Source of the DNA: Antedon mediterranea
Taxonomy: Eukaryota; Animalia; Echinodermata
Reading direction: 5' to 3'
Assembly: GCF_964355755.1 (NCBI RefSeq)
Contig: NC_092678.1
Coordinates: forward strand, 12,894,352 to 12,958,351
DNA: 64,000 bases
Below the pieces are notes generated by a model. It did no database searches, was not told the DNA's origin, and saw only the letters and a program-made list of their open reading frames with translations. Each line of letters opens with the position of its first letter. Position 1 is the first letter of the stretch. A program made the position numbers and the translations under genes. Of this stretch, positions 17,251-62,200 are shown one piece after another.

Positions 17251-17283
17251 TGCTTTATAACAACATTCTTAGCTGTAATACGC

Positions 17284-22220: not shown

Positions 22221-22854
22221 TAAAAACTTTTCAACGTGTGATATGGTTGGAATGTACCTGAAACATATTTTACTGACTAAACGCTGTAGTTTTACAGAAA
22301 TAACTTTAAATACCCTTTTTCTAGGGACAGTACAACATACTGAACTATTTATCTATAGCCTTCTGTACATACAATTTTAAGTTAAAAAAAACGATCTAAC
22401 GGGAGATTTATGAATTATTCTGTAAATTTCTAATTTCTATAAACAGAACATCTCAAGTTCACTGTCAGAGTCATCGCTCCATTCCGGCCCAGAACTTATA
22501 TCATCTTCGTTGGTTTCGCTAACGCTCACAGGTACATCTTCAAAAAGGTTTTCGGGTAATGCCATTCTGGAAACCAGTTTATTGTAAAAGTTATTTATTT
22601 AATCACAAACTTTGTTCAAAATAATGATTAATATACTCTTGTAATAAGCATTGGGCTAGATATGTAGTACTGTATCTATTAAAAAAGGTACTTAAACAAA
22701 ATTAGTATAATCATTTATAATCAGCATTGGGCTACAGTACTTATTGAAAATATTAATATACTCTTCTAATTAAGAATTTGGCTACAACTACAGTTTTTTA
22801 CTTACAAATTGTTAATGTACATTATATATATGACAAGACAATCAATAAATTGTC

Positions 22855-23560
22855 TAGTAACCAAAAACTTCATTTATCTCATATACTGTACTGTAATATT
22901 GTGGCAAACAGTACGTTGGGGAAACAAAAAACACTCTCCGTATGAGAATGACACAACACAGATCAGCTATCAAAGCTTTAAAGCTTGATCAACCTGTAGC
23001 CGAACATTTTAATTCAGCTGGTCACTCGATTGCAAATTTCAGAGTTATTGCAATAGACCACGATGTCAAATGGAGCGACAAAACTCGCAAAGACAGAAAA
23101 CCACTGGGAATTACAACTTAAAACCACAAAACCTTTTGGACTTAACATTAGGAACATACTCCCAGATCGGTAAAATTATTCAATTGACTACCACAATTTA
23201 AGTTTCAATATTAACCACCATTTAAGCTGTTTTTTAGTCTCATTCCAAAAGTGTTTATATCTCTACTACCAAGCTACCTTCTTTGTTTTCTACTCTTATT
23301 CAGACTCCACCCTGGCCCCCCTTGTTATATTTCTTTTATTCCTGTCCACCCAGGCAGCACTTGCCAGCTTTATACTATGACGTTATCCAAATTCCTTCAC
23401 TTGCACTGATGAAGGGCTAATGTTGCCCGAAAGCTCTGCTAACTTTTCTGGCTGTTTGCTTTATCGTTTTGATTTAGCTTTTCGCTTTTTATTTTTGTAT
23501 CTCCATTGAGATCCAGCCACTGATACCTACAGCATTTTCATTTTTTTTTCAGTAATTTCC
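22855..23560 (+). mobile_element. Penelope-like element 3' fragment (GIY-YIG endonuclease + pLTR)
   Basis: Translates across frameshifts as IYLIYC..CGKQYVGETKNTLRMRMTQHRSAI..PVAEHFN..LKTTKPFGLN. A minimal hammerhead follows. Confidence 0.85.
23403..23439 (+). ncRNA. Minimal type I hammerhead ribozyme of the Penelope pLTR
   Basis: GCA-CTGATGA-A-GGGC-TAATGTT-GCCC-GAAA-GC-TC-TGC. Stem I GCA/TGC, stem II GGGC/GCCC, palindromic AGCT in place of stem III. Predicted cleavage after C23436. Confidence 0.85.
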
Positions 23561-23697: not shown

Positions 23698-23769
23698 CCC
23701 CCCAACCGAGACTCGAACTCGGGCCGCCTGCTTGAAATGCAGATGTCCTAACCATTAGACCACTGGGGC
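23698..23769 (-). tRNA. tRNA-Glu(TTC)-like gene, pseudogene or SINE head
   Basis: GCCCCAG-TG-GTCTAATGGTTAGGAC-A-TCTGC-AT-TTC-AA-GCAGG-..-CCGAG-TTCGAGT-CTCGG-TTGGGGG, followed by a T5 terminator. The 1:72 mismatch and A at position 32 argue against a fully functional tRNA. Confidence 0.7.
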
Positions 23770-25015: not shown

Positions 25016-25221
25016 ATACACTGTTATTCACTGTATGGTATTTATACTTCATTTTACGAAATAAGAAAGAATGAATAGTGCTGTTTAATAATATAACATG
25101 GTTAGAATAATAGCTACTAAATAGGCATACAGATCCGTTGTATTTATTCTCGTATACTGTATTTTACAGTAATTTTAAACATTTTCTTTTATAAGGTAAT
25201 GATGTTCTCTCATCATTAAAT

Positions 25222-26268: not shown

Positions 26269-29200
26269 GTATGCATTGTATTCTTTTTGTCTTCATAACC
26301 AATCAGTCATACTAAAGTGAAGCATGTACATAGTTGTTTTCACAAGAAGAACATTTCTTTATTGCATGTTTAATATAGGTTACATCTGCATTGGTATTAC
26401 CTGTTTGTTGTAATTATAATTTCATTATAATAGCATATAAATATCTGAATAACGATGAAGAAGTTTCTATATTGAATGATACTGTACCTCAAAAATATTA
26501 AATTAAAAAAATATACAATGCTGCACACTAAACAGCTTCATTCTTTTCTTATAGAATATTAATAATAAACTAAAACATTTTAATATTTTGAAAATCAATC
26601 AAAAGCATTTTTAAATGGGTCTATTAATCATAAATTAGACCCTTAAAAGGTCCCTTACAACATCTTTAATTAATTTTATATAAAGAATTAACAATAAAAG
26701 CGTTTTATAAATATCATACTTAGGCTATATGCCTATTTCTATTGATGTATGTGTGATGACATGTTATAACAAATACTGCCTAAAATGGAAAACAATACAA
26801 ACAAAACATGTGTATGACTTTTAAAATTTGACAATACAAAAAAACATATTTGGTATCTTGGGCTTAGATCAACACGAGACATTGCTCAGTTTGTAGATTT
26901 ATACTACCAAGCGTGATTAATAAAACGAACGTCTTCGACACTAAGAGGTCCGCCGAACTTAGTTTAAATCTATATAAAAGTACATCGTAAGTGTATGGTG
27001 TAAAATTCATCAACAATTAAATTGAGTTTTTTACAAAAAAAAAGAAAACAACAAGCACTTCATTGTTATTCTTATTTGACCAATATTTATTTTGGCTTCC
27101 ATTATATTGGAAATGAAAATACTGATATTTGTTTGGTGGTGTTTGGAATGCGATAAGCACTATCGTCAATGGAGAGATCATATAACTCAAGATTTGTATG
27201 CCTGTGGTATAGAGAACATGTCAGTAGTTATTTTCGTGTAACATGCAAAGGTGAGCAAAATCATATAGTAATCCAGCTATGACACAGATACATCGGACGA
27301 TGAAGGCAATGACCAGTGCGCCTGTCTGATACCATCAGATATTGACGTTGGATTTTACATGTCATTACATCCGCTTCATTATAATTTCAACGCTCACTGT
27401 ATTTTTTTTCGGAAATATTTTAAAGCCTATAGTATCAATTTTTGTTAAATTTTGAATGCAGTGTTTTTGTCACAAAACATGGAAATTGTAAAAAATCTCT
27501 TTGAGTTACCGTCAGAACATAACATTAGGCCTATATCATATTAGAGTTTTTCGAAGCCATAAAGAATAAGGATAGCATTCATTTTTTTTTTATAAGCAAT
27601 TGAGTTTGGTTCCCTACACCTCATGTCTGTCTAATTTCAGGAACTGTCAATTTTAGCATCCTACTACAAAAATGATTTATCTAAAATATTCAACGTGTTT
27701 CTGGTATGTTCTTTGAAATGTCTGTCAACATTTTCGACATCTGCAGACGATGTGCTTCTTCAGTTTAAACCTAATAAAAAGAAGATCTGTATCATATTCG
27801 AATTCACAATACATACAACAGAAGGAGGGCTCGTGCTGAGCCTAAGCTCAAGTGAGGTTCTTGTAATAGTCCGGTATCGGATAGTGATAGGGCTATCTGT
27901 TGGATACAAAGAAACTATTTATTGTGTTGCTGTCTTATAACAATGCCGTAAAGAAAAGAGAAATGATAGGCCTAATATATAAGTGTGATAACGATAATAA
28001 AAATAAAAGTGTATCGTAATAAATTCCCCTATCTTTGATATCTTTCATTATAGTCTCGTATGCCCATTTGGGAGGAAGGAGAGACGATGGCGTTCAGTGG
28101 ATCCCCCCGGTCACTTGTATATAAACCAAACGGGGGGGGGGGGGGGTGCAGCAGCCACTTCAAGACATGAGGCACTACCTGTTTTACTGAAAAATACTAC
28201 GGACTTGAACTATAAGTCCAGGAGTATTAGACAAAAAAGGGCCAAAGGTAGAAATAAATATGCTAAAGCTGAATTTTTCAGGATAGGTCCCCAATGTTGT
28301 CTGGAACAACATACTAAAAGTCCCCGGGTTTCCCCGTTGTGCTTCAACCTGATTGGGCCATTTTTCAAAATGGCGGCCATCTTAACATTATTTACCATAT
28401 TTTGACAAACAGTAGGTGTAAGTAAACAATTTTGGTGTCAAAATACTCAGAAGACCAATATTTATATTCACTGTAATGGAGAAGTTTTTAAAAAAATGGA
28501 CTTTGACCATAAATTTGGATTATCTCAATATCTCATCAACGACTGGCCGTAGAGAGTTCAAAATTGTCCCAAATTATTCAGAATGCCCAACTTTCTATTC
28601 ACTCTAATGAAAGTAAAATACTAAATTCCTTTAGAAACCTTCTGTTCTGACCTTTGAACTATTGACCTAAGCATATTTTAATTTTATAGACATCTTAGTG
28701 ATCGATAGGAGTACATAAGTGAAATTGGTGTCAAAATACTCAGAAGACCAATATTTATATTCACTGTAATGGAGAAGTTTTTAAAAAAATGACCGGAAAT
28801 GCATGTTTTGAACTTTGACCCTAAATTTGGATTATCTCAATATCTCATCAACAACTGGCCGTAGAGACTTCAAAGTTGTCCCAAATTATTCGGAATGCCC
28901 AACTTTCTATCTACTTTAATGAAAGAAAAATACCAAAAACCTTTAGAAACCTTCTATTTTGACCTTTGAACCCTTGATCTGGTCATATTTTATAGAATAG
29001 AAAGTTGGGCATTCTGAATAATTTGGGACAACTTTGAAGTCTCTACGGCCAGTTGTTGATGAGATATTGAGATAATCCAAATTTAGGGTCAAATATCAAA
29101 ACAGGCATTTCTGACCATTTTTTGTTAAACTTTTTCATTACAGTGAATATAAATATCTATAAAACTCTAGAACTAAGAAGTTAAAAAGAAAACTTCTTGC

Positions 29201-32200
29201 ATCCGAGTTTCAAAACAAACTCAGGATTATTGGCAATGATTGCCGTAAGCAATCAACGGTAATGGCCTGAAAGGGACATCACAAATTTGGTCTACCTGCA
29301 GACTTAGTCATTTCAACAAAAATGACTCTACCTTCGGATGACTTCAGGGCTTTTAGGAAACCCTGCAGAAGGTTCGTTGGGACTTATAACAAGAATCAGG
29401 GCAACACCTCTGATTCAGTTGTTAAAAATAATTGTCGACTTTCTAAAGGAGAGAAAAAACGTCTTTCCCGAGGACCCCAAACCAAGGCAGGTCGGCGCAC
29501 AACAACTATCTTTTGATATAGAGTCTTTTTCCAGAAGATTACGATTACGTGAATATTTTGCTGATTTAGACAGCAGCACGATGCAAAACGAAGGCAACAT
29601 TACCAAATTTAAACCAAATAGTTCCTGGAATCCACCTAAAAATCGTTGTCCAGCTTTAGAAACATTTATCCAGGCTATTGAGGAGGATGTACAAAACTAC
29701 GTCCCGAGTCCAGATAAACGTGACATTCTCCCAAAACAAGAGAGGCAGGCCAGTTGCGTCAGCGTAATGATATCATCATTAAACCCGCTGATAAAGGTTC
29801 TGCCATTGTTGCTATGGACATCAAATTTTATGAAAAGGAATCCTTAAGACAGCCAAACAATCCTCTTCATTATATATCGTAAACGGACCCCTCCCCCCCC
29901 CCCGGAAATTGCGGATAAGGTGGCCAAATCTGTTTCTGTGATGGTAAAAAAACACTCTATCGATCCTAAGATTGGACTTCATTTGGAACAGGTCAATCCA
30001 GTTCCAGGCAGATTTTATTTCCTACCTAAAATCCACAAAGCAGGCAATCCTGGTAGACCCATTATTTCGGGCAATGGCACTGCTACAGAGGAAATTTCTG
30101 AATATGGGGATGATTTACTTAGACCATATGTGACTAATCTCCCTTCATACATTCAGAACTCCACGGGCTTTATCCGCAAAATTAACCAAATTTCTGACTA
30201 CATTAGATGTTTCATCGTTGTATACGAATATCCCTCACAAAGAAGGAGCTGACGCATGTATTTTAAATTACAAGCAAATTACAGGCAAAACGCCTACTAA
30301 AGCTCATTTATGAGAACAGGTCATGTTGATTTTAACAACAACAATTTTATTTACCTTCAAATTCATGGCACAGCGATGGGCACAAATGGCCTCATCTTTT
30401 GCAAATTTATTTATGGGACAATTTGAGGCCAAATGTCTGTCCCTCCAACCTAATAAACCACTTTTTTTGGTTTTATTTATTTATTCAAGATCCAACAGTG
30501 TAAAGAAAAAACAGGATCGCCATAAATAAAATATATATAGATACATTGACGACATCTGCATGATCTGGACCCATGGTGAAGTTAATTTGTAATTTTTTCT
30601 TCTCAATATTAATTCAGCCCACCCAACTATCAAATTTACAGCTACCAAATCCACTAGTAGCGTTGATTTTTTTATCCGTAAACCTGCGGATAAAAATATG
30701 TACCTGCTCTCTAGCAGTTGTCATCCCCAACACTGTACTAAAAACATACCGAACAGTAAAGCATTACGTGTCAGACGCATCTGTTCTTCAGATTTAGATT
30801 TTCAGAATCGTACCGAAGAACTAACCGGACATCTCCGGAATAGAAATTACAAGAAGGAATGCATCAAAACTGCTATAAAGAAAGCAAAAAATATTCCTCG
30901 ATGTCAAACACTGACGTACAAACTACGTCAGCCAAATTCGACTGGTGCCATTGGTCACAACCTATCGCCCTAGGTTGCCTCCATTACGGGCTATTAATTT
31001 ATTGAGAAACATATGCTCATTCTAAAGTCCACAGAACCTCCCAGAACTGTTTTTCCGGAACCACCCATTATTGCATTTCGTAGACCTCCCAACCTTCGTG
31101 ATATATTAGTCAGATCCTAATTTAATTGTGAAATCTCATATTCTAATGAAACAGTTCATTGATTTTAAGTTATGTTTACACTATCAAACTAGTTTGACAA
31201 AATAAAAAGTCACCTTTGAGGCAAATCTTGCAAAACTTGTTCATTGGTTGGTTCTAATGAAAAATTTAAGAGTAACCAAACTGGCCGCATTATTCGGATA
31301 AGACAATCAATTAATATCGTTTAACCAAAAACGTCATTTATCTCATATACTGTAATATTTGTGGAAAACAGTACGTCGGAGAAAAAAAAAATTTACCCGA
31401 GTCTGTACTTGTTATATATATTTGGCTTATATACGTTTTAAGTGAAACTCTTAAACTATTTTTCCTTTTAGAATGGTAATGATCATTTTATCGTCATTGA
31501 TGTGATATATTTTTTGTTTTGTGTTAGTTAAACTTTATTAAATTAAACATGTTGTTTTAGGTGTTTTTTTTGCTGCTGGTGGTATCTACAATATCTAAGC
31601 TACGCCATACTTGGGGTAAATGGGGTCTCTAATCGAACTTTAGAGGGGTCTGCCAGGGCCAAGGCAGTGTACTAGTCTGTAATAGGTCATTTGGTATTGC
31701 TTACAATGTGCTAAATTATGTAACATTGGTTGCTGGTGGTATCTATAATATCTAAGCTGGGCTAGTGGGGGAAAGGAGAGTAGTCTAACTTCGCAGGTGT
31801 CTGCGATGCAGCAGACAATTAGTCTGTTGTCATCCATTTAGTATTGTATGAACACAACTTGTTCATTTGGCATTAATTTTGAGTGGTACCTCACTCATCT
31901 ATGCTAACCCCATTTTAGGCCCTCCCTGGGGGAGAAGGGGGGGGGGGGGTCTGGCGGGCCTTTTACAGCAGACAAAAGTCTGTCATTTGTGATACTGTTA
32001 TAAGGATGCCAATGGGCATCCCATGGTGGTAAAATTAGGTGCTATCTCTCTCATCTAACCGGGGCCGATTTTTTAGCACGTTTTGGGCCCCCCCCCCCCA
32101 GTCTAGACGCAGCAGGGTGTACCCGGCAGACTCCCATTTTCATTGACTTCAAGTGACCCACAACACACTTAAATAGTCAGATATTGGTACCTAGCTCATC

Positions 32201-35200: not shown

Positions 35201-38200
35201 GGTACCGAAAAGACTAAATATCAAAACTACAATGAGTGAAAGGATAATTAAACATAACTAGATAAGAGGTGCCGTTTCAATTTAAAAGGAAAACTCTTCT
35301 TAGACAAAGCACTTTTTATATTAACTGGTACGTTATCCCAAAGTTTAGGACCAGTGAACTTAATGCTATGTTTAAAAGAAGTAGTTTTAAAAAAAGGAAT
35401 ACGTATTTGATTTGCGCTTCGAGTACTGTGGTTATGAAAATTAAGATTGAAACTAAATAAATCATTAAAGTGTGATGGCAGGATCGAGTTTAGCCATGAA
35501 TAGAGGAAAACACTTTGTTGAAGATGGTTAATATCCTGAATTTTAAGAAGACCAAATGAAGAAAATAAAGGATTGGAATGGGATAAAGGAGAGCATTTGC
35601 TATGTATCTTACGGTTTTCTTTTGGATCAATAACAGTTTGTTTAAGTAGAAAGAATCGTATCGCGGTTGTTGTGTAATCAGATCACTTCTTGTTGCTATA
35701 CGCTTGGGTGCACACGGAACAACAAATTTAACTGATGAATTATTCATGTATATTTTGTGACGTTTCATGAGGGGGTCCCCAACTTATGTACGAAAAAAAA
35801 AATCGCATCCTGGGTACCACAAGATACGTGTTGGTGGTGTGTTCCAATTTTGGTTTCATTGCATTTGTCAACAAGTATCTAAGGTAAAATATAATTGGTT
35901 AAAGAATGATGATCCTAGTTTTTCTGGTATTGCAGAACGTGTTCTGCATTAGCAAACAAAATTATGACCTTACTCGGCGACATTAAAATCGGACAGGAAA
36001 GAATGCAATCGGATATTGATGAGGTGAAGAAAGATGTGAAAGTAAATAAAGATCAGATTAGAATCTTGACCAAGAAGTCTAGTAAGGTAGATTATCATGT
36101 TGGTAAATTTAATGAGGAGGTTTCTGAGCTTGTTGATTAAAATGTGAAGATATTAATGAAAGATCGAAAGGAAAAAAAAATGTAATCTTTGGATTTGAAG
36201 AGAGCTCTAGTCCAGATACTGCCGTAAAGAAATTATATGATCATGATTTTATTAAGAACCTAATAGTCCGGTGGCAGGAGAAATCACCACTCGAAAGGGG
36301 ACAAATTGCCATCCAACTTTTCTAGACCAAAATTTTCCGTACATTACGAATATGGAAGGTAATCGATCAGGATAGGAAGCTTTTTCTAGATATAAGGGTC
36401 AAAGTTCAAAATTGACCAATTACAACAATGTATTATGTATATGTATTATAACACATTTATTGCAGCACAATTTGGTCTTTTATTACATTTTTATGATTAT
36501 AGGTGTTTATTAATAATAATAAACAGTATTTATATAGCGCCTAATTGATCACTGACCCCTCTAGGTACTTTACATTAGACCTTAACTAATGGTAATAAAC
36601 TATCCCCCGCCGGACACCATTCCGGTATTTCTTAGTCGAGGTTTCGGGGATGGAGACAATCAATAATGTGGAAAAAAAAGTAACTAAGCTTAACTATGCT
36701 TAACTAAGGTAAAACTATCCCCCGCCGGACACCATCCCGGTATTTCTGAGTCATGGTTTCGGGGCCAGAATTAAGAATAGAGAGTAAATGAAGCATGCAC
36801 TAACTTAAGCTACGGTTAAACTATCCTCCGCCGGACACCATCCCGGTATTTCTGAGTCAAGGTTTCGGGGAAGGAATACATGAATGAATGAATAAGTTAA
36901 TTAATACCGGATGAGAACAGATGGGCTTTCAGTCGTGATTTAAAAATACTGACTGGCTTGCTTTATCAACGCTTCTATGAATGGATGACTAGTTGGGAGC
37001 AGTAACGCTAGAGTACCAAACCCAGTACCGTTTTTTATTACGATCATGCGGAAAATTACCTCACGACGTAAGAAAGCAACGAGCTGCTTTTCATATACAA
37101 CAAATAGACTTAAAGACATTGCCAATTGCCTACTAATGAACATTATATAACCTAAAATTATCATCACAATATTAATTTAGTTATACAGAATTGTAGAATA
37201 AACGATTGTCTTGGTTGTAAATTTGTAAATTGAAGTCTTACTATAATATTTTTTGGGGGAAATGATAAAAGCGATAAAATTGGTAAAAAGAAATTAGCAA
37301 TCACGTTATTTTTTTCGTAGATTTAAAGCTACCAAAGCTGAAATTACCAATGTGCCTGAACAGTTACAACTTTAAAACGTTGCAAAAGTTAAAAAATAGT
37401 TGGTAGCAAAAAACATTAAAGATAAAAAGACAATAATATGCTTACTGTTATCATAATACGTTGTACGTTTGTGAAAGTCTTTCAGTTTTACTGCTGCTGA
37501 TGTTCAGTCATTGATGAGTCTTCCAAATGACGGTAGGCAACTATACAGACGTTATTCACAAGGTACCTACACAGAAGCAGCAGTATCAGAGGCATTGCTA
37601 ACAGTTAATGATAAAATACTAACATCAGTCACTACAGAAATTGAAGAGAATCGTACAATAGCATTCATAGGCACAGGTAATGGACAACTTATTAAGGTTA
37701 GTAGGCCTACTACGAATTGTTCAATTTGAAATTTTGAAATTGATTATAAAGTTACAGAGATACAAATACACTTTTTTATTTCAATATAACAAGTGTCCAC
37801 AAAGAAATCGCAAAGGGCACGTAAACAAATAATGTATGTCTTTTAAAACTCACTTGGGGACAACAAAGAAAAAATGAAGTATGATTGTTATGTTTTGTGT
37901 ATCAGTATTTTCCCTGTCGACTTAATTTATATAAATATGATTACAATTTTGGCATTTCCTTCAGCAAAGAAAAAAAAACCAACATTCGTCGGATGTGCTG
38001 CATCGGATGAACATTCTTTACATGACCTAATTAGGAATAGCTCTTAGCATTCCTACAATAATGAGGCAGGTCCTAAGTATTGTGAAATAAGTTATTTTCT
38101 TCCAATTTGTCAGGCTGAGTTAACAAACAAAACATCATCTAGACCGTATGAAACTATCACCATAGATACAGGTCAAGAGGTCAGATCAGACACATTTATA

Positions 38201-41200
38201 GATAAAACATCTTATTATGTAATAGCACTCACAGCAAATAAGGTCAGTTTATTCTAATTTTATGTTATGTTTATCATAATTTATTTTTAATATTTGATTT
38301 TGTTTTATACATAGTATATTTTCCTTGAACATTCATATATAAATATTTGATAAAACAAAAAAAAAAATTTCCCCGTCTCTTCACAAAGGCCGGGACAATC
38401 ACCAAAAGAATAAAAAGCAGTAAAACATCCTGAAAATACACGATTTTACATTTATTTTTATTATTTCATGCTATTTAAAAAATTTACCGAAATGTGCCTT
38501 TGCGTGAATTGATAATAAAATAGCTTAATGTTTTTATACTTTTGATTAGTTGGTCAAGCTACAAGTAGCAAACTGCAGTCAGTTTATCACATGTGATGAG
38601 TGTATCAGACCAGGTAAACTAGATGCAGATCCTTATTGTGGATGGTGTACACTACACAAAAAGTAAATAGAGTTCTTTTTCTTTTCTTTTTCTTTTCTTT
38701 TTCAATCCCAAATTATTATTTTGTCTTTTCCTAATGCATTCGACAAATTATTAAGATATTTTTGTTTGTTTTTTTATTTTTTTTTCTTTTTCAGATATTT
38801 TTGCAAACAATTATAATAAATGTTAGAAATTAGGTAACTGTCTAAATGCTAAATTATTTCAGGCTTAATTATTTCTTCAATATTTTTATTTTATTTTATA
38901 TATAGTTTTTTAAACAGTTTAAAACAAATCTTAATACAAATAAAGAATTTATATGTTCTTCAGTGCAGATAGCACTTACATTTGTCTTTTTTATTTTAGA
39001 TGTACCAGATTTAAAGAATGCCAACAGTCTCCCTGGTTGCCAAGCAACAGTGCACAATGCATTGAGATTACAAATGTTGAACCACCTTTTATCCCTAAAA
39101 CTTTTGAAAATATCAGCGTGAGTTGTAAAGAACAATTTATTAAATTGTTTTCTAGGCTTTTAATATTTAATAATAAATAACATGCCATTGGCTGGAGAAT
39201 TTTAGCACTACTAAGGCAGGGGTACTAGTACAAACTATATCTATATTATCGGCACATCTATCTTAGGGTTCAAGCCTATCCTTAGCCATAGTAATTCTGG
39301 ACTCAAAACTGGCTGGAGATCCAGTGTACATCTGGCTTGTGATGCTTGTTCAAAAAGGGAATTATCCATTTATATAATAACAAGTTTTAATATGTATGCA
39401 ACTTCATAGCTTAAATGTGTTTATTCATAGATTTCTGTAACTGTTGAGCAACTTCCTTCTTTAAACATCAACCAAAATTATAATTGTACATTTGGTGACT
39501 TTCAATCATCCGCAATAAAAGATGGAGAAACATTGACTTGTAATTCACCACCTTTATCACATGTGCCACAGATACCAACCAGCCAAGGTGAGTTAAACAT
39601 TATGCTAATATGCTTTACTTTCTGTTTTATTGTTCTTTATTTAATGTAACTGTAGCAGTGGCTAGTATTTCACACATGGTATGCATTCTTCTCAGTAGGA
39701 GGTGTATACTATTAATAGCTCATGAGGAAATAGGTTTTTGTACACACACCATGGAGTACAGAAATCATGCACACGTCACTACTCTACATTGGCAACAAGG
39801 GGGATCCCCCAAAGTGACCCTTGTTTTAACCTAGTGATATCTTAGGCTCTGTCTACACTATCAAACTAGATTAACAAAACAAATATGGTAGTGATATGCC
39901 CAAATATGGTAGTGATATCACATCATCCTCTCCATATATGGGCACATAACATATTTTGGTAGTTATTTGCACCAACTATTTAAACCTATCTACCTCGGGA
40001 AAAAGTAAGTAATTAAATATTACATTTAGGTTTTTTGTAGAGATTTTTTGTATTTACCCATGAAATGCATTTGAAATTAAGGCCTAGGCCTACACATTAG
40101 CTAACCTCTAAATAATTTGTTTACAGCTTTTGTAGATGTTATTTTATCAGTTCACTCATCTGTAACTGATGTTGATTTTGTTTCCACTGACTTTACATTC
40201 TTTGACTGCAGTGCCATTACTTCGTAAGTACTGACTGAATTTTTTTATAAGCATGTGTAAAAAATAAACATTTAAAATATTTCAAATTCACTACTTAAAC
40301 TATCACATTTTTTATTGTAAACACACATTTTCTAAAGATAATAACAAAATAAAAGGATCTAAAATTCAAGTGACACATTATTTTAAGGAAATAAATGTTT
40401 ATTTAGTTTCTACTGCACCAGAATGTAAACATAAACTGTAATGTAATGTAAAGTATAGGAATTAAAATAAAATATTGATAATATTGTTGTAATGGGACAG
40501 TTGTAATTGTGTAATACGATACTGTACAAACATGTGTCAGACAGCAGCAACCACGGCTCTTTTGAAAATATAATTCATTTGCACCAACAACAAACAACAG
40601 TAAATAGCCACAACTGGACAACTCTCAATAATGTAACAAGAAATGTAATGCAACAAAAAAAAACCAACCAATTCTCAAACAATCGCCCTTTACAGTATCC
40701 CTATTCCCAATACAATTTATACCATTTTCCAAATTTCCCAATCCTTCCAGACAAAATATCAACAATCTTCTTATTGCCAAATAAATCCTAGAAACCCCCC
40801 TTTCAAATACAATAATATCACAGGATGAATAATTAAACGAATAATAAAGGTCCACAATATCGTTCCTTTTTGTTTTCTCTCCTACGCTGACACAAAAAAA
40901 ATTAGAAAAATAAAAACGATTCTGCAACTAAACAACTCCCACGCCTCTGCTCCTGTTTTGCTGGTATTACCAATTATAATTCTTCCCAAACTGCAACTAT
41001 TTTCTTACATATAAATAAATTAAAAAGAAAGTTAAAATGTTTCTTGATGTCGTTCTGTACTGCAATCCGCTCCCCGACCAATTATTTCTTTCTCCTTTCA
41101 CGTAAAGTTACTCTTCAATATTTTCAACAATTCTTTAAATTCAATTAATTCTACTATTTCCAACAGTTATTTCTTTCTTCAATTTACATACAAAATTTCA

Positions 41201-50200: not shown

Positions 50201-53200
50201 AAACTTAGGCCTAAATCTATTTTTAAAAACCACAAAACAAAAATTGATAGAGATATTATTTTAAAATGAATGGATGTATCTAGCTTGTTACTTAATAATT
50301 ATTTCTACCAATACCATGTTAGTTAATTCATATACACTAGAATTCTCGATAACAACTCCACTTCCAAAAACTTGTTGTTTCATATGGAACGCCGTTTACG
50401 CAACATTTCGATGATATGAATTGTATGACGCGATATGTGAATGAAATGCATCGATATGAATTGAATGGCGCGATATTTGAATGAAATGTTTTGAATTGAA
50501 TGCTTTGAATTGAATATTTTGAATGAAATGTTTTGAATAAAATGTTTTGAATGCAATGTTTTGAATGAAATTTTTTGAATGAAATGTTTTGAATGAAATG
50601 TTTTGAATGAAATGTTTTGAATGTACCCTCATCTCCTTTCCACGCTGTCATCAATATGGATCCTTTACAGAGAATGCTAACAGACCTGAAACAGTGTAAT
50701 ACATATTTCCAAATCCAGGTCTGTAAGGATTCTCTGTAAAGGCAACGTGGAAAAGAGATGAGGGTACCCAGGCTTAGGCATAAGAGGTTGAGAAAAAAAT
50801 CGCGAACGGGAATGACATACGCCGCCAATAGTTTGACTTTTCAATTCAATTCAAACATTTCATTCAAAAAATTTCATTCAAAACATTTCGTTCAGAACAT
50901 TTCGTTCAAAACATTTCATTCAAAACATTTCATTCAAAACAATAAATTCAAAGCATTCAATTCATTCATATATCGCGCCATTCAATTCATATCGATGCAT
51001 TTCATTCACATATCGCGTCATAAAATTCATATCATCGAAATGTTGCGTAAACGGCGTTCCATAGTTTCAGGAAGTTTTTGTGGTATAATTTTCCTGTAAA
51101 TGTCATATTTCATTTTGGCATTATTGTGTACTTTTAATGGCTTTTTGGAAAACATTTCTTTCTATCTAGTATGACTACACAGCTAAGGACAAGCAGGAAG
51201 TAAACGCATATATTAAAGTATTTTGGAACGACAATGAAATTGACAATGCTTATCAAGGTTGGTTTCACCTGATTGTTTACATTGATAAATATCATTAAAT
51301 CAATTATTTACTTGGTAAACATAACATCATACATTTTGTTATCATATATCCACATACCCCTGTTCAATTTTCCATTAAAAAAAAATGTAACTCCTGAAAC
51401 AAATACAGTATTCCTAGTACCTCTTTAACAACCCTATTTTTATATTGACTGTTTCTGCTTATTTTGTGCTCCCAAAAAACCAGTAAATCAGTGTGCGGTG
51501 TATAGTGGACAAAAAAAACGGTAAGATTACCCAAAATGCTGAGAACCGCTCAAGCTTTGGAATGCTACTGTAGTTCACCCAAGGTTAACTACAATCAATC
51601 AAATTATGCACAAACATTTATTTATTTTGTGAATGCCATTTAACAACCACAAATCTGTCTCATTTATGCTACAAATTAGGGATAATTTATTCAAACAGTT
51701 ATTAACCAAAAAAAAGAACATTATACAGTTATTAACAGCTTAAAAACAGTCAACTGAAAATTCTTTAAGCTCGCCCAAACTGTCATATTCTTGAAAGTCT
51801 GGTTTTCCAAATAAATTTTACATACAGTTTTAGTTAAGTATAAACAGAATTCAACGCTTTTGTTCAACTTGATTTCAGACAAACTGTCCACATGTAAATA
51901 CAATAAAAACATTTGAACATTATGATAGGTTCCTGGTTCAGATATTCAGAGATGTGGTTTCAGCTGACACTGACAGACAATTAAGTGTTTTTAACATAGT
52001 ACAATTGTTCTTTAATGAACATATTAAATGGTTGTTTAAATTTTAAACAGGAAGTTTAACAACAATTTACTTTACTAAGTATTGACTCAACACCACATTG
52101 TTCAAACAACAGGATGTATATAATTACAGTCAATTTGTTTGTATACTATAAACCCCTACTTCATTCCCTTTATTGTTCTGGTGTCATTCTGTGCAAATAA
52201 TATTATACCCATAATGGATGGATAATGTGTATTTGTTTGAATAATTATTAGTTACAGTTTTTAGTTTATCCTTAAATGTTATCATGACATATGTCTTGTC
52301 ATAATACATATATAATATTAATGTTATCTACTCTCATCCAACCAGGCTTTGAGACGTGTTTTCAAAACCTGGTAAATAAAACCAATTTATTAAATATCAT
52401 GTGTTAGCATACAGCCATTTTATACGAACGCTGTCAAAATATGATAAAAATATGTATCATTCTTTTTTTATGTTGTTTTTGGCATTTTAATATTCAAAAC
52501 AAAGTCACAAGATCATAACTGATAGTGACACCTTCGTAATATGCTAATGATATGATATTTTGTCAGTTAATGCTTCATTTTTACATTTAATTTCTCTACT
52601 TTTATTTACCAGTCACATTGTACAAGTGTAGTGTTCAACGTCCAGACTGCAGTCGATGCTATTCAATGAACACCACTAGGTCTGGACTTGATTGTGTCTG
52701 GTGTACTGGAGACCAATGTTCCTACAGTCCATTGTGTTCATCAATAGTGAATGAATGTCCATCACCTGTCATTATTCAGGTAATTTGAATCATTTTATCT
52801 TCCTTTAAAATCCAGCACTCTAGCCTAACTTAAATTTGTTTGAAATGTTGTTTGCTAGTCGCCCTCTATTACTCGTTCATCTATATATAAATTTACGTAA
52901 GGGCAAAATTCGGTAAATCGCGCCTTACTTTAGAATGTAAAGTTGGTTCGTACTTTCGGTACTGATTTTAACCACCTGATGTAACCCTGTTTACTAATTA
53001 AATTAAGTTAGATAATTAGTTATTGACGATTAAAACGAATTTAGGTTCAACGATTTGCCCCAGATAGGGGTGTTTTCCGATCGTGGTATACACTGTCTAA
53101 TGGATGTCCATCTTGAAAAATACCCGCCACAAAAATGCGAGGAGGCTTCGCATTTTCCTATCTCCTCCTACGATAATTGTTTTTAATAGCTGAAAACCGG

Positions 53201-56200
53201 TTGAACAGCTCGAGTACAGTATCATAATGTTGAAGACAGGCCGGTTTTCCTAAAAAAATACTATTTTGATAGATTTAATATACGTTTATACAAATGTATT
53301 GATTTGCGATGAATGGAACATTCCAATCTCTGTGTCGTTCCACAAGTGTCTATTCCCTCAGGCGTCGTAAAGGAAAGTACTGTATACTCATAACAGAAAT
53401 TCGATCCATTTTTTTTTCAATCTGTGCTGCAGAGGTTGGATATAATTTTTTTTAAACGGATAATGAGCTAGCGTTTTCAGTCACCGTAATTTAATATTTA
53501 TTACCGATTAAATCGAATTTATGATTTGCCCCGAATAGAGGTGGTTTTCACAAATTGTTTAACATTATATATAAACATACGTCGTAGTGTATCGTTACAT
53601 GTACTGTACTATTTCAATCGACTACGACGGTGATAGTTAAGTTTCAACAAAGTATTACATCGCAATGTTTTACTGTGTTTAGTGGTATATTATTTGTAAA
53701 ACATGTTAATTAATATTTCGTTACAAAATAAAGAATATATTTAAAAATTGTTCCTCTTTGCACCCATCCTCTTCCCCATCTCTCAACCATAATGTTACAT
53801 ACAAAACACAAATTAAGTTTGTTTAAATTTGACTTAAACAATTGGTCTCATTTTGTGACAACTTTCTCTTTCGGAAGTAATTCTCAGGGTGCTAATTTTA
53901 GTTGAGTACATAAATCACAGTGTCTATTTAATCGTTCATGTAAACGACATATATTATTGTCCTGCATTATTGTACATTTGAAATCGCCAGTTTTTTAACG
54001 CTGAAATTACTGTGTATTCGAGAACCATCTGTGGGCACGACCTAGATGGTACGCTCGCTTCGCTCGCGTACCATCTAGTAGTGTGTAATTTACATTACAG
54101 TATATATTTATCGCAGAAAGGGCAGAACATTTAGTCTGAAAATTAGAAGATTAGAAGAAAAGGGTACTGAAAGAGTATATGATATTTGAGCAAATTGTTT
54201 TACTCCAAAATATCCAATGGTTTTTTTTTTGTGATTATACCAATCATGTTTGTTTTTTTTTAAATATCCATCATGCTTTTATGTTTTACTAATATTATTT
54301 TCAGACTCTTCCCATCTCAGTTGCTACAGTAACTACTCAACCTGAACCTGATTTCACAGAGGTCATTGAACTGTTCGGAACTGATTTTGGACAGATGATG
54401 TCAGATATTGACAACTTTATGATAGATAACAAAGAATGTGTAATAGTTGCTGATGGATTTAACATAGCTTTACAAAGGTATTTTAAATAAAATTTAATTT
54501 AACATTAATTATGTAGCACTAAGTCTGTACTTGTTTCTGGTGAGATCCTTCAAGCTGTACATAAGCCAAGTTTCATACAGGACCAACGGAATAACATCTC
54601 ATCCGGAAGATAGTGCACTATATTCATGTAATCCAACCCATAAGTTAGAACACAGAGAGATGGCGATTGAACCGTGAACCAAACCTATTTCATGGTTCAG
54701 TGCACAACACAGGTAATACCCTCAGTTTAACCGAATATGCCTCTCTTTCTGTGTATTGTGATAATGTGTGTATGGACAACAAGTAAATATATTATGATTG
54801 CTACTGTATGTATTCAGCTTTCACTGATGTAATGCAAAACAGATCATAATATAAGTAGTTGATACCCATCCTACAGACGGGTATCTTTGACAACTCTGTG
54901 CTACCATGTTAAGATGCCTCAAATTTGTCTCATCTTATACAAACATTTTCTAAAAGCATTTTTATGGAAAACCACCACTAACATGAGATGAAATACACAA
55001 CACTTCTGTAACTTATCACACATTTATTTATTTATTTATTTTATGTCTTTAGGCAATGTGGCCAAGGATTACCAATAGTGAATTAATCACTGTCCTATCA
55101 CATAGGTGGTAATCCCCCTGATACAGGGGCTATTGTGTGAACCAGTTCACCGGGGTAACCCCCTACTCTTTTTCGAATAATGAACTGGGTTTCTTTAAAG
55201 TACACACAGGTCATAACTGTGTACACTCGCCCTACGGTTTATAGTCCTTATCCGAGAAGACTTGTTCCACCACCAGAACTAGGAGCGAGTCGGCCTCGAA
55301 CCCTTGCCGAGGTTGTTGTTGGCTCTTTAGGTACGGTAAACGGCGCCCCTGCCTTAACCGTAACCGTAACATAATCCATAAACTATTTGATTGGTTCGTT
55401 TATTAAGCATCATGTGCCATGCATTATTGCGATCCATCCTCAACATTGGGAGTAACATTGCATGTTATTTTTTTTATTATAATTATTTTTGTGGTGTATA
55501 TCAGTAAAAAAGAAAATTCTATTATTTACTATACACAGTGTGAAATGTAAAGCTCCTGTGTTTGATAGTGTCTCTCAACGTGAAGTCATCATAACTGTTC
55601 AAGGAAAGACAAGCGCACCTGTAGTCATACTCTATCAGGTATATTTTTTCACTCAAATTTCACAATTGTTTTAATCTTGCCTTAATGTAGAAAGAAGAGT
55701 CAACCTTAATAAATATTTTTATATAATTACTAAAGTTATTTTAAAATGTTTATTCTACAGTAATCATGTATATTTGTTGTAAACTTGTGGTATTCATGAT
55801 ATTAAATGAACACTAGAACCAGCCAAGAGTGAAGATACATTCACTTATTTCTTCTACTGTACGTTCACTCTTTTCTTCTACTTTAACTCTTTTCTTCTAC
55901 TTTCACTCTTTTCTTCTACTTTCACTTTTTTCTTCTACTTTCACTTTTTTCTTCTACTTTTACTCTTTTTTCTACATTCACACCTGCTAGAACGAGATAA
56001 GAGTGAAATTAATGCAATTTCACTCTTTTCTTCTACTTTCACACCTGCTAGAACGAGATAAGAGTGAAATTAATGCAATTTCACTCTTTTCTTCTACTTT
56101 CACACCTGCTAGAACAAGATAAGAGTGAAATTAATGCAATTTCACTCTTTTCTTCTACTTTCACACCTGCTAAAACAAGATAAGAGTGAAATTAATGCAA

Positions 56201-59200
56201 TTTCACTCTTTTTTCTACTTTCATTCCTGCTAGAACAAGATAAGAGTTAAATTAATGCAATTTCACTCTTTTCTTCTACTTTCACACCTGCTAGAACAAG
56301 ATAAGAGTAAAATTAATGCAATTTCACTCTTTTTTCTACTTTCACTCCTGCTATAACAAGATAAGAGTGAAATTAATGCAATTTCACTCTTTTCGTCTAC
56401 TTTCATTCCTGCTAGAACAAGATAAGAGTGAAATTAATGCAATTTCACTCTTTTCGTCTACTTTCACTCCTGCTAGAACAAGATAAAAGTGAAATTAATG
56501 CAATTTTACTCTTCTCTTCTACTTTCATTCCTACTAGTAAAAGAAAAGATATTGTCGTGAGGTGGTTTCCCGATTAATCGTACGATCAAAACGGTACTGG
56601 GTATGATCAACTAGCGTTCGTGTTCCCACCGAATCATCCATTCATAGAAGTACTGATGAAGATATCAATCTGTGGCGACAATAGAATGGACCCGAGACCT
56701 CATGAGGTAATTTCCCGATTGATCGTAATCAAAACGGTACTGGGTTTGGTCTACTAGCGTTCCTGCTCCCAACCAGTACATCCATTCATAGAAGCCTTAA
56801 TGAAGTAAGCCTACCTGGTGGTGGCCATAGAACGGTCCCGAGATAACGACTATACTTCGGCTTTAGTCGATAGAAGATTGAATAAATTGTTAGAGATAGA
56901 GTATACGATGTTATGATTATGTGTAGATATGTGATTTGTTCTTTTTATTCCAATGATGTTATGTATTTAATAAATTTGTTATATCAAATAATTAAATTAT
57001 CGTAGATTGCATATTATGCGATGAATATTATTTAATACATTTTTGATATATTATTATTATTATATTAATAAAAAAGATATTTGTTAGTATAAATTAAAAA
57101 ATATAGATATAAGGAAGAAAAGCAAAGAGATTATGGAGCGGCTGTACCAGAATATACAACACTAAGTATTGTAAAGTTAATATATTAAAAATTTAGGCGA
57201 TCTTGTCAAAGGTCAAGCGCCTTCAGCCTGCCACGTTTCGATATTCAATATTGAACTTGACCTGACGTGGTTCCACAATATCTTTATATGAAAATGGTAG
57301 AGTGGATAGAAACATAAATTAATTTAAATTTAAAATGTTTACCTTAAACTGGTTTTGAACTGAATCGGTTGATGTCTTATCGTTGTATGTATGATTTGGT
57401 TTAAATTATGTTCGATAAAAGTGCGTATGCGTATAGAATGAAATGCTCGCGTTACGATGTACGCGTGTAATGCTGTTTATATCGTATAATAGATAAAGGA
57501 TGAAAATATAGAAGGTATGATGGTAGAAAAATAAAAAGCAGTTTAGGATGTAGAAATAGGAAAAGTTTGTTAGTGCAAAAGTGTAGATTTTGAATGTGAG
57601 AAATGACTAGAAAGTACATTCCTGCTAGAGTCCTATGTCGGCACCTAGGCCTATATAACGTCATGAGGTAATTTCCCGATTGATCGTAATCAAAACGGTA
57701 CTGGGTTTGGTCTACTAGCGTTCCTGCTCCCAACCAGTACATCCATTCATAGAAGCCTTAATGAAGTAAGCCTACCTGGTGGTGGCCATAGAACGGTCCC
57801 GAGATAACGACTATACTTCGGCTTTAGTCGATAGAAGATTGAATAAATTGTTAGAGATAGAGTATACGATGTTATGATTATGTGTAGATATGTGATTTGT
57901 TCTTTTTATTCCAATGATGTTATGTATTTAATAAATTTGTTATATCAAATAATTAAATTATCGTAGATTGCATATTATGCGATGAATATTATTTAATAAA
58001 TTTTTGATATATTATTATTATTATATTAATAAAAAAGATATTTGTTAGTATAAATTAAAAAATATAGATATAAGGAAGAAAAGCAAAGAGATTATGGAGC
58101 GGCTGTACCAGAATATACAACACTAAGTATTGTAAAGTTAATATATTAAAAATTTAGGCGATCTTGTCAAAGGTCAAGCGCCTTCAGCCTGCCACGTTTC
58201 GATATTCAATATTGAACTTGACCTGACGTGGTTCCACAATATCTTTATATGAAAATGGTAGAGTGGATAGAAACATAAATTAATTTAAATTTAAAATGTT
58301 TACCTTAAACTGGTTTTGAACTGAATCGGTTGATGTCTTATCGTTGTATGTATGATTTGGTTTAAATTATGTTCGATAAAAGTGCGTATGCGTATAGAAT
58401 GAAATGCTCGCGTTACGATGTACGCGTGTAATGCTGTTTATATCGTATAATAGATAAAGGATGAAAATACAGAAGGTATGATGGTAGAAAAATAAAAAGC
58501 AGTTTAGGATGTAGAAATAGGAAAAGTTTGTTAGTGCAAAAGTGTAGATTTTGAATGTGAGAAATGACTAGAAAGTACATTCCTGCTAGAGTCCTATGTC
58601 GGCACCTAGGCCTATATAACGTCATGAGGTAATTTCCCGATTGATCGTAATCAAAACGGTACTGGGTTTGGTCTACTAGCGTTCCTGCTCCCAACCAGTA
58701 CATCCATTCATAGAAGCCTTAATGAAGTAAGCCTACCTGGTGGTGGCCATAGAACGGTCCCGAGGTCAAGTTCAATATTGAATATCGAAACGTGGCAGGC
58801 TGAAGGCGCTTGACCTTTGACAAGATCGCCTAAATTTTTAATATATTAACTTTACAATACTTAGTGTTGTATATTCTGGTACAGCCGCTCCATAATCTCT
58901 TTGCTTTTCTTCCTTATATCTATATTTTTTAATTTATACTAACAAATATCTTTTTTATTAATATAATAATAATAATATATTAAAAATTTATTAAATAATA
59001 TTCATCGCATAATATGCAATCTACGATAATTTAATTAATTGATATAGGCTAGGCCTAACAAATTTATTAAATACATAACATCATTTGAATAAAAAGAACA
59101 AATCACATATCTACACATAATCATAACATCGTATACTCTATCTCTAACAATTTATTCAATCTTCTATCGACTAAAGCCGAAGTATAGTCGTTATCTCGGG

Positions 59201-62200
59201 ACCGTTCTATGGCCACCACCAGGTAGGCTTACTTCATTAAGGCTTCTATGAATGGATGTACTGGTTGGGAGCAGGAACGCTAGTAGACCAAACCCAGTAC
59301 CGAATTGATTACGATCAATCGGGAAATTACCTCATGACCACACAGTACACAACTTGACATCGCGCACATTGTATACGCTAGCATTTCATTCTAATACGCT
59401 CACGCACTTTATCGAACATACTTTTAAACCAAACCAAAACCATACAACGACAAGACATCCATCGATTCAGTTCAATACCATTTTTAGGTAAATTTTGAAT
59501 TAATTATTATTTTCTATCAATTCTACCATTTTCATATAAAGATATTGTGGAACCACGTCAGGTCAAGTTCAATATTGAATATCGAAACGTGGCAGGCTGA
59601 AGGCGCTTGACCTTTGACAAGATCGCCTAAATTTTTAGTTTTTAACTTTACAATACTTAGTGTTGTATATTCTGGTACAGCCGCTCCATGATCTCTTTGC
59701 TTTTCTTCCTTATATCTTTACTCTTTTTAAAAGTTTTACTAACGATTTTTATTTTATTTTATTATAGGCTATTTATATTTTTTGCTTTATGTACACGACA
59801 ACTAACGATCAAATAACAGTTTTTTCACATCGCAACTTATACAACGTAATTTTGAAAACTACAACCATTTTTTTCTATATACATACAACGTACATTTCTA
59901 TTTTAACAAAAACATTTTTCTAAACTTTCTATTATTTAAAAGTCGAAGATAGCCAGGTCTCGGGTCCATTCTATTGTCGCCACAGATTGATATCTTCATC
60001 AGTACTTCTATGAATGGATGATTCGGTGGGAACACGAACGCTAGTTGATCATACCCAGTACCGTTTTGATCGTACGATTAATCGGGAAACCACCTCACGA
60101 CATTATACAGGCCTAGGTGCCGACATAGATCTCTAGTGGGAGTTAACCATCATAGTCATTCCTCACATTCAAAATCTTTCCTGTAACTAACAACCCATTC
60201 CTTTTTCTATACATCCTATACTACTTATTTATATCCTACCTTTATACCTATGTTATTTTCGCTCTACTACAATGTACGATACACTTATAATCTTACATGT
60301 ACCACACAGTACACAACTTGACATCGCGCACATTGTATACGCTAGCATTTCATTCTAATACGCTCACGCACTTTATCGAACATACTTTTAAACCAAACCA
60401 AAACCATACAACGACAAGACATCCATCGATTCAGTTCAATACCATTTTTAGGTAAATTTTGAATTAATTATTATTTTCTATCAATTCTACCATTTTCATA
60501 TAAAGATATTGTGGAACCACGTCAGGTCAAGTTCAATATTGAATATCGAAACGTGGCAGGCTGAAGGCGCTTGACCTTTGACAAGATCGCCTAAATTTTT
60601 AGTTTTTAACTTTACAATACTTAGTGTTGTATATTCTGGTACAGCCGCTCCATGATCTCTTTGCTTTTCTTCCTTATATCTTTACTCTTTTTAAAAGTTT
60701 TACTAACGATTTTTATTTTATTTTATTATAGGCTATTTATATTTTTTGCTTTATGTACACGACAACTAACGATCAAATAACAGTTTTTTCACATCGCAAC
60801 TTATACAACGTAATTTTGAAAACTACAACCATTTTTTTCTATATACATACAACGTACATTTCTATTTTAACAAAAACATTTTTCTAAACTTTCTATTATT
60901 TAAAAGTCGAAGATAGCCAGGTCTCGGGTCCATTCTATTGTCGCCACAGATTGATATCTTCATCAGTACTTCTATGAATGGATGATTCGGTGGGAACACG
61001 AACGCTAGTTGATCATACCCAGTACCGTTTTGATCGTACGATTAATCGGGAAACCACCTCACGACATTATACAGGCCTAGGTGCCGACATAGATCTCTAG
61101 TGGGAGTTAACCATCATAGTCATTCCTCACATTCAAAATCTTTCCTGTAACTAACAACCCATTCCTTTTTCTATACATCCTATACTACTTATTTATATCC
61201 TACCTTTATACCTATGTTATTTTCGCTCTACTACAATGTACGATACACTTATAATCTTACATGTACCACACAGTACACAACTTGACATCGCGCACATTGT
61301 ATACGCTAGCATTTCATTCTAATACGCTCACGCACTTTATCGAACATACTTTTAAACCAAACCAAAACCATACAACGACAAGACATCCATCGATTCAGTT
61401 CAATACCATTTTTAGGTAAATTTTGAATTAATTATTATTTTCTATCAATTCTACCATTTTCATATAAAGATATTGTGGAACCACGTCAGGTCAAGTTCAA
61501 TATTGAATATCGAAACGTGGCAGGCTGAAGGCGCTTGACCTTTGACAAGATCGCCTAAATTTTTAGTTTTTAACTTTACAATACTTAGTGTTGTATATTC
61601 TGGTACAGCCGCTCCATGATCTCTTTGCTTTTCTTCCTTATATCTTTACTCTTTTTAAAAGTTTTACTAACGATTTTTATTTTATTTTATTATAGGCTAT
61701 TTATATTTTTTGCTTTATGTACACGACAACTAACGATCAAATAACAGTTTTTTCACATCGCAACTTATACAACGTAATTTTGAAAACTACAACCATTTTT
61801 TTCTATATACATACAACGTACATTTCTATTTTAACAAAAACATTTTTCTAAACTTTCTATTATTTAAAAGTCGAAGATAGCCAGGTCTCGGGTCCATTCT
61901 ATTGTCGCCACAGATTGATATCTTCATCAGTACTTCTATGAATGGATGATTCGGTGGGAACACGAACGCTAGTTGATCATACCCAGTACCGTTTTGATCG
62001 TACGATTAATCGGGAAACCACCTTACGACATTAACAATTTTATGAAATATTTTCCGCTGACCAATTTTCATACTATAAATATATATTATATATATGTTGT
62101 TATGTTTGTATATAAACATTTGTTTTTTTTTTAAATATTAAAAACAATTATTAATCATACAGATTGTAATACCTGTGTTTTATTAGTATATATTTATTAA

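Follow-up and report, generated by a model that had tools for sequence, protein, structure and literature searches.

A 64,000-nt window of the Antedon mediterranea genome (Eukaryota; Animalia; Echinodermata; NCBI RefSeq assembly GCF_964355755.1, contig NC_092678.1, positions 12,894,352 to 12,958,351 of the forward strand) holds a 5.5-kb insert at 56554-62029 that is built from two subfamilies, A and B, of a unit of about 960 nt. We consider that the unit represents a young, protein-less and hammerhead-less family, probably mobilised in trans by an endonuclease-bearing (EN+) Penelope-like element (PLE) from a linear RNA template (rough probability 0.6), and that the insert is probably the trace of copying that began on either side of a single DNA cut. 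A preliminary description of this DNA had proposed a retrozyme-like element copied from circular RNA; its recognition of a retroelement family that is non-coding, has a fixed 3' end and forms Penelope-type head-to-head arms was borne out.

Structure of the insert and its target site

Copies, periods and junctions were determined by comparing the window with itself and by direct base counts. The insert consists of four arms, arranged as follows:

56554..56700, minus strand: B tail, the last 147 nt of subfamily B in inverted orientation, which form the outer portion of the left arm
56700..58764, minus strand: subfamily A, 2.15 head-to-tail units of 961 nt, 2065 nt in total (inner part of the left arm)
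58763..59338, plus strand: A', a 5'-truncated A arm of 576 nt, placed by alignment to the left A arm
59337..62029, plus strand: subfamily B, 2.79 head-to-tail units of 964 nt (outer part of the right arm)

The near-perfect head-to-tail runs with non-integer copy numbers that had been described earlier were confirmed, with 2 mismatches in 1107 compared positions among the tandem copies of A and 1 in 1738 among those of B. Identity within the runs is thus 99.8-99.9% with exact junctions (BLAST E about 0, far beyond chance), and the left A run halts 143 nt into its third unit. The B tail shows 0 differences over 146 nt from the ends of the two inner B copies and 1 from the outermost copy. All four arms terminate at the fixed end ..ACCTCA(C/T)GA(C), which in the outermost B copy reads ACCTTACGAC, while the 5' ends differ from arm to arm and the fixed 3' ends of B face the host flanks. 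The same end terminates a solo copy elsewhere in the window (copy C, below), so the single homologous end point reported before holds for all of them. For B, the 3' end is duplicated in inverted orientation on the left, as had been stated (147 nt); for A the arrangement is the reverse, with the long arm on the left and the short one on the right. The inner junctions carry microhomologies of 1 nt (56700), 2 nt (58763-58764) and 2 nt (59337-59338), again in agreement with the preliminary description.

Alignment of A' to the left A arm revealed 5 substitutions and an 11-nt insertion. Given that 5 of 565 positions differ between these arms and only 2 of 1107 within the left arm (Fisher P 0.048), the excess points to two A molecules. 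The inserted 11 nt (59043-59053) resemble a TAGGCCTA-type motif, of which a simple-repeat patch lies at 12367-12564 and an 8-mer occurs 30 times in the window. The two left-arm stops fall 147 nt (B) and 143 nt (A) from the fixed end, a coincidence with a chance of about 1% that was noticed post hoc. Poly(A) is absent at the ends of the insert, and the B sequence adjoining the ends of A is not AT-rich and shows neither a duplication nor an ATT between A and B.

Of sixteen public sequencing runs listed, four (X1, X5, X6 and X9) were aligned, as contigs, to 55500-62066, which includes 36 nt of the right flank; small-share runs of organisms D and E do not enter the counts. A contig of run X1 links 56548 to 62030 via GAT, which is the empty site, and it leaves an ATT on both sides of the insert:

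56551..56553, plus strand: left copy of the target ATT (sequence; empty-site joint in run X1)
62030..62032, plus strand: right copy of the target ATT; the next B unit would start with the same bases (ATTA, 4/4)

The empty site, whose inspection had been suggested earlier, implies a single 5.5-kb insert at an ATT target. The contig, with one extra G relative to the window flank, may represent an allele or a paralogous site. The former statement that there is no clear target-site duplication (TSD) was too strong, since the ATT on both sides may reflect either a duplication of 3 nt or base pairing with the start of the following unit. The flanks match the head of the next unit at 4/4 and 4/5 positions (chance 0.017 and 0.06). 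A 61-bp tandem repeat with 9.8 copies and an internal palindrome occupies 55836-56549; it fades into 19-bp units and stops right where the insert begins on the left.

The unit family and its element class

The A and B units are 74% identical over 1012 alignment columns, and most of their 43 indels are not multiples of 3. As had been claimed, no open reading frame (ORF) is common to both; the longest stop-to-stop frame, 101 aa, occurs in A only and has no Pfam match. Searching 56554-62029 by tblastn with five PLE proteins gave no match, so the reverse transcriptase (RT) plus GIY-YIG ORF of an autonomous PLE was not found in the insert. Two conserved stretches and a third subfamily were recognised:

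59999..60136, plus strand: conserved module that starts about 103 nt short of the fixed end (60101) and extends about 35 nt beyond it, across the unit junction
60486..60601, plus strand: block of 116 nt without a difference between A and B (in A at 57186-57301, minus strand)
36955..37069, plus strand: copy C, a solo 5'-truncated member of a third subfamily, 115 nt, with the same 3' end; 84-86% identical to A and 76-77% to B

Within the junction module, which is also seen in copy C, identity between A and B is mostly 16-19 of 20 (one window 14), compared with 10-15 upstream, and this conservation suggests that the module likely holds the start of reverse transcription. A module beginning exactly at the stops near -145 was considered and rejected, as A/B identity shows no step up there. 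For the 116-nt block, the expected count of such identical runs is 3e-13 if columns are assumed independent. The block has no Rfam match and folds with z of -1.5 and -1.2, and at its positions 57223-57224 most of the contig depth in each of X5, X6 and X9 differs. A small ORF or selenocysteine reading of the block was dropped by eye, with an ATG in A only and no protein search made.

A splice-donor-like AG|GTAAA, noticed by eye, is retained by A and B near unit position 347 (60440-60455 in the B run) ahead of the 116-nt block, with acceptor-like sites farther on. No joint among the contig joints listed supports such an intron; PLEs are described as keeping introns in their 5' untranslated regions (UTRs) (PMC8557442). 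The G/C skew of the sense strand, -0.24 and -0.27 in the units, resembles that of the PLE 3' UTR in the window (-0.32), compared with -0.04 for the whole window. At 36581-36915, about 50 nt upstream of copy C, roughly three 106-bp units are followed by a short segment of that unit in inverted orientation; no hammerhead was matched there.

Matching contigs were numerous, with 2641 in run X1 and 513 in run X5 (organism A), 1522 in run X6 (organism B) and 58 in run X9 (organism C), and the repeat family is therefore abundant, diverse and common to three organisms. Among the 32 of 4859 contig pieces listed, 6 halt within 6 nt of the fixed end and then continue into other sequence (X1 records 2, 3 and 6; X5 records 11 and 15; X6 record 20), one is ambiguous at that end (X1 record 7), and another spans a head-to-tail junction (X9 record 27). 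Loose ends gave a similar picture: of the 24 rows listed out of 1162, 4 (12 contigs) fall no more than 6 nt from the fixed end. One further row among those 24 (8 contigs, X6, 60070) lies 31 nt inside it, a distance equal to the optional tail length given in PMC3846280. Summed contig depth, which is not copy number and is confounded by conservation, reached 284,297 in the 3'-end bins of X1 and about 5,000-19,000 in the unit-head bins, and is taken as a hint only. No pile-up of molecule ends was listed, which contigs would not reveal in any case. From these contigs it is shown that many dispersed 3' fragments of the family exist. Long arrays with random ends, as expected of a satellite, were seen neither at the insert nor among the contigs listed, and the arrays here are shorter than 3 units. 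Pattern scans gave 2 matches in metagenomes and 0 and 1 in viral contigs, all without similarity beyond the pattern itself, and 0 in prokaryote genomes.

Two Penelope remnants noted before in the window proved to be real:

22824..23440, plus strand: Penelope-like remnant that retains part of a GIY-YIG endonuclease and, at 23406, a minimal type I hammerhead (tblastn; hammerhead descriptor)
29163..31392, plus strand: broken Penelope-like RT with a C-terminal GIY-YIG (sequence and Pfam searches)

The GIY-YIG fragment of the former scores under the curated Pfam cut-off (E 0.0035). Of the named relatives of a Penelope protein remnant in the window, the nearest is from Antedon mediterranea itself (81% identical, 1 of 22 matches). 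The two remnants share no convincing terminal sequence with the unit and would be candidate partners only; the comparison of the 3' core of the unit with them, proposed earlier, gave no match in either. The best alignments of A and B to the remnant 3' UTR (23243-23298) both begin at the same place, unit position ~112. Next to the broken ORF at 29163, a 250-bp direct repeat and an imperfect palindrome of about 400 bp occupy 28432-29156.

To define the element class, a hammerhead descriptor of our own, strict and relaxed, was run on both strands of A and B, and it recovered the control hammerhead at 23406. No type I hammerhead was found on either strand of A or B. With 1 mismatch allowed in the core there were 0 matches on three of the four strands and 1 implausible match on B antisense; with 2 mismatches there were 0, 11, 1 and 1 matches over the four strands, none common to A and B. 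The sole CTGANGA lies in the antisense strand of B, and neither A nor C has kept it intact; the half-core CTGAAGG, common to A and B, is altered in most of the depth of X5, X6 and X9 (57223-57224). A hammerhead reading TGGATGA..GAAA near the B 3' end was dropped because it was not found in A. A descriptor for a hepatitis delta virus (HDV)-like fold matched neither A nor B, and twister, pistol and hairpin motifs gave only one 7-nt partial match on B antisense. Rfam returned nothing relevant in the insert, a weak negative since it also missed the control at 23406.

Folding pointed in the same direction. The B sense strand folds worse than shuffled sequences (z +1.39; 20 of 20 shuffles fold as well), and the antisense strand has z -2.34. 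Over 34 local windows of 120 nt per strand, only two antisense windows pass z -2, and in A and B alike all sense windows stay at z -1.8 or higher. Covariation in consensus folds of the 3' core is slight, with 2 of 35 pairs in two sequences and 0 of 20 pairs in four.

A type I hammerhead in each unit is the defining feature of animal retrozymes, whose consensus lengths span 51-972 bp (bioRxiv 10.64898/2026.07.22.740005). By this defining test the unit is not a retrozyme, since neither A nor B holds such a hammerhead, and the label "retrozyme-like" is not supported. Non-coding head-to-tail units of a size within that range are present (961 and 964 nt, no shared ORF), so that about 960 nt is not beyond animal retrozymes, as had been implied; a highly self-paired monomer is not. 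Three features of EN+ PLEs were found instead. Partial tandems with a fixed 3' end and 5' truncation occur in the four arms, in copy C and at contig ends in three runs; an adjacent inverted 5'-truncated copy stands head to head with its partner at this locus, for A as well as for B; and at one site there is an AT-rich (ATT) target with a short or no TSD and no poly(A). Short interspersed elements (SINEs) have a head derived from tRNA or 5S RNA with A and B boxes, plus a tail that is A-rich or a simple repeat. The unit does not fit this class: ARAGORN predicted 0 genes at thresholds 100 and 90 and 1 ambiguous gene at 80, paired A/B boxes were absent, and Rfam matched none. Helitrons have 5' TC and 3' CTRR with a hairpin and insert between A and T without duplication. 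The unit has no CTRR at its other end (a CTAG lies about 12 nt inside) and shows no insertion between A and T without duplication.

Proposed mechanism, rival explanations and related systems

EN+ PLE insertions are known as partial tandems that are truncated at the 5' end and have a truncated copy beside them in inverted orientation; a tail of 30-40 bp is optional (PMC8557442, PMC3846280). A purified PLE protein, Poseidon of Anolis (PAc), cuts and extends both strands with a preference for 5'-ATT-3'. It initiates reverse transcription internally, at two positions separated by 30-40 nt, which define the tail; insertion occurs even with a dead hammerhead, and its authors proposed a multi-copy mRNA as the template (PMC11167929). 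These properties would give fixed ends, partial tandems and head-to-head arms without a circle. Internal initiation on a linear multi-copy RNA would leave the same footprint, and thus the rolling reverse transcription of a circular RNA put forward earlier is not needed.

Given these precedents, we infer the following course of events. A tandem source copy would give rise to a linear RNA longer than one unit, and a PLE protein would cut both strands at ATT. Each cut end would then prime reverse transcription at the fixed internal site of a B RNA, for 147 nt on the left and 2.79 units on the right, and the presence of a B 3' end at each host flank is what would be expected if both cut ends primed on B RNA. 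Both complementary DNA ends would next jump, by pairing of 1-2 nt, to the same start site of A RNAs on two different molecules, and the A arms would finally be joined via 2-nt microhomology. Conservation over the unit junction, together with the matches of the flanks to the head of the next unit, suggests that the template likely continued past the fixed end. The left-arm stops at 143 and 147 nt would fit a defined RNA 5' end, which we offer as a hint only. Membership of the insert in the PLE-mobilised class is highly probable, and nearly as firmly we favour a linear over a circular template. Of the earlier proposal that two RNAs were copied in one template-jumping event, template jumps remain the best explanation and both arms likely switched from B to A in this way in one event; the preference for one event over successive insertions is slight.

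Several observations weigh against this reading. The composite junctions come from the window assembly alone, and none of the five is bridged among the contig pieces listed. The listed solo 3' fragments measure about 155-220 nt with no clustering at 143-147, and since A/B identity shows no step at -145 either, the hint of an RNA 5' end stands on two junctions. No autonomous partner sharing the ends of the unit was found in a comparison that covered the two window remnants, both of which lack the 3' core, and 0 of 3 short unit motifs occur in the supplement of PMC8557442. A matches the remnant 3' UTR weakly (1 of 300 shuffles as good) and B does not (252 of 300). The 30-40-nt tail is present at neither outer end of the insert. 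The flank-template match is 4 nt here, compared with a non-homologous start in vitro (PMC11167929), and the 3-nt ATT compares with TSDs of 8-10 bp or none in rotifer PLEs (PMC3846280). Finally, no RNA run carrying the unit was among those listed, and X5, which is RNA only by guess, is not taken as evidence of expression.

Two other explanations concern only the history of the insert. It is possible, though we think it the less probable course, that A came first and that B was later added at both A ends by a PLE endonuclease recognising its own terminus and cutting the adjacent ATT, an account that overlaps with the one-event mechanism preferred here. A PLE endonuclease is reported to recognise its own tail and to nick "in its own pLTR" (pseudo-long terminal repeat; PMC11167929), and A carries more differences (2 in the left arm, 5 plus the insertion in A') than B (1). 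However, no ATT remains between either A end and B, two one-armed B insertions would be required, and no A-only joint occurs among the 15 of 66 joints or the 12 of 28 bridged joints listed, where the fully empty form is present; the excess in A' is also better explained by a different template than by age. The opposite order is a good deal more doubtful; here B with its inverted tail would have come first, and its inversion junction would later have been hit, or deleted, by A. Descriptively A is nested in B, and secondary insertions of PLEs into PLEs are known (PMC3846280). The B sequence flanking A is neither AT-rich nor duplicated, which argues against a later endonuclease-cut insertion of A; an exact hit within about 2840 nt of B would be improbable without a deletion, and A is not younger by divergence.

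A circular template was weighed against the linear one preferred here. A covalently closed 960-nt RNA, closed by an unrecognised ribozyme or by back-splicing and copied repeatedly by a PLE enzyme from a fixed internal start, would agree with the 99.8-99.9% identity of the tandem copies, their exact junctions, the conservation that spans the junction and the 116-nt identical block, which has no assigned role. A circular template has been proposed for PLE tandems (PMC4209133), and hammerhead searches can miss variants, as Rfam did with the control at 23406. Yet neither the strict nor the relaxed descriptors found a hammerhead, no HDV-like fold was found, twister, pistol and hairpin motifs were absent apart from the one partial match, and the shared half-core CTGAAGG is altered in most of the depth of three runs. 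The sense strand (z +1.39, with no 120-nt window at z -2) is not what is seen in retrozyme circles, which are highly self-paired (PMC7229834), and two stops in the same phase would not be expected. We therefore regard a circle as unlikely. The more specific idea that the unit is a new kind of replicating circular RNA, processed by a ribozyme not yet described or by a fold that binds protein, either of them within the 116-nt block or the junction module, is somewhat less likely again; if it were true, PLE enzymes would chain circles on both sides of a break and the insertion would record the RNA pool of that germ cell.

Rolling-circle transposition can yield tandem copies with one fixed end, and on the antisense strand a TC stands one base inside the fixed end. 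Break-induced template switching that rearranged either a DNA element (a non-autonomous Helitron or another transposon of the rolling-circle type) or a satellite unit is nevertheless very improbable, given the lack of a terminal CTRR and of A|T insertion without duplication. Head-to-head arms with dispersed 5'-truncated 3' fragments fit target-primed reverse transcription, the arrays stay below 3 units, and Replitrons are described from plants, algae and protists (PMC10288648). Least probable of all, and hardly credible in our view, is an assembly or foldback artefact of a high-copy repeat. In its favour, none of the contigs listed spans a composite junction, and the empty form is present in run X1; the arms, however, are asymmetric with private variants, every junction lies at a biological end of the family with 1-2 nt of microhomology, and the outer ends rebuild a clean target.

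In our best reading, the closest match to the unit may be a hammerhead-less non-autonomous PLE like the algal MRC1, here in an animal. Naiad and most Chlamys PLEs are described without hammerheads, and non-autonomous Chlamys elements such as MRC1 insert as multi-copy head-to-tail arrays (PMC8557442). Like MRC1 of Chlamydomonas, the unit has no ORF, and with it and the Naiad PLEs it shares pLTR-type partial tandems and multi-copy head-to-tail insertion; the 5' truncation, the inverted truncated copy and the lack of a canonical hammerhead are common to Chlamys and Naiad PLEs (PMC8557442). It differs from the Chlamys PLEs and MRC1 in its animal host and in its ATT target beside a 61-bp repeat, not (TA)n or (CA)n, and from MRC1 and Naiad in that two subfamilies are chained on both arms and a partner with a matching 3' end is only putative. 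Naiad PLEs occur in invertebrates, with no echinoderm reported in the parts of PMC8557442 considered here.

With PAc the insert shares the ATT target, the apparent extension of both strands, a fixed internal start and independence of hammerhead cleavage, and perhaps a second start about 31 nt away (PMC11167929). PAc is autonomous, unlike the insert family, carries a hammerhead and starts at a site not homologous to the cut DNA, and template jumps between families are not described for it in the sections of PMC11167929 considered. The animal retrozymes without LTRs resemble the unit in their non-coding AT-rich tandem units of 51-972 bp, few copies per array and proposed dependence on PLEs, and differ in that the present unit lacks a type I hammerhead and a self-paired sense strand (PMC7229834, bioRxiv 10.64898/2026.07.22.740005). 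The EN+ Penelope insertions of Adineta vaga likewise have head-to-head inverted arms, an optional 31-bp tail and microhomology at junctions, and non-coding or foreign sequence there is mobilised in trans with template jumps proposed; their TSDs are 8-10 bp or absent, unlike the ATT found here, and the inversion-junction palindromes and self-priming invoked for them are not seen at this insert (PMC3846280).

The insertion pattern itself is largely known. The mechanism of tandem and inverted PLE insertion is still open, and the sole in vitro system leaves the later steps unvalidated, while this insert looks like an in vivo footprint of ATT cutting, two-strand extension and internal initiation. 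Since two distinguishable RNAs mark the order of synthesis on each arm, two-sided priming and jumping between families become testable. The insert further suggests that animal PLE parasites need no hammerhead, in which case ribozyme-based retrozyme searches would miss an abundant class. In the open literature, with Repbase, Dfam and the family supplements of the 2026 preprint outside its scope, we found neither a hammerhead-less non-autonomous PLE in an animal nor an insert chaining two subfamilies on both arms.

Host gene and other features of the window

The insert sits in an intron of a plexin-like gene, between an exon at about 55532-55620 and the following exon:

62227..62364, plus strand: host exon with an IPT/TIG domain (Pfam TIG E 2.2e-10)

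The plexin-like assignment is based on this TIG exon and on the Sema domain in a related gene copy within the window. Sema-domain (plexin-like) paralogues lie in both orientations at 3207-4322, 25159-26273, 27635-27937 and 37475-37703, and the segment 61-1527 is duplicated at 38777-40237. Over the whole window Rfam matched only a 5S rRNA-like sequence (1794-1912) and a tRNA-like sequence (23698-23769), both on the minus strand and possibly SINE heads. A 716-bp palindromic element whose arms contain 14-bp tandem repeats occupies 50365-51080, and an LTR-retrotransposon-like element, classed by eye, extends over 14652-19968, where two identical stretches of 66 nt enclose frames resembling gag and pol.

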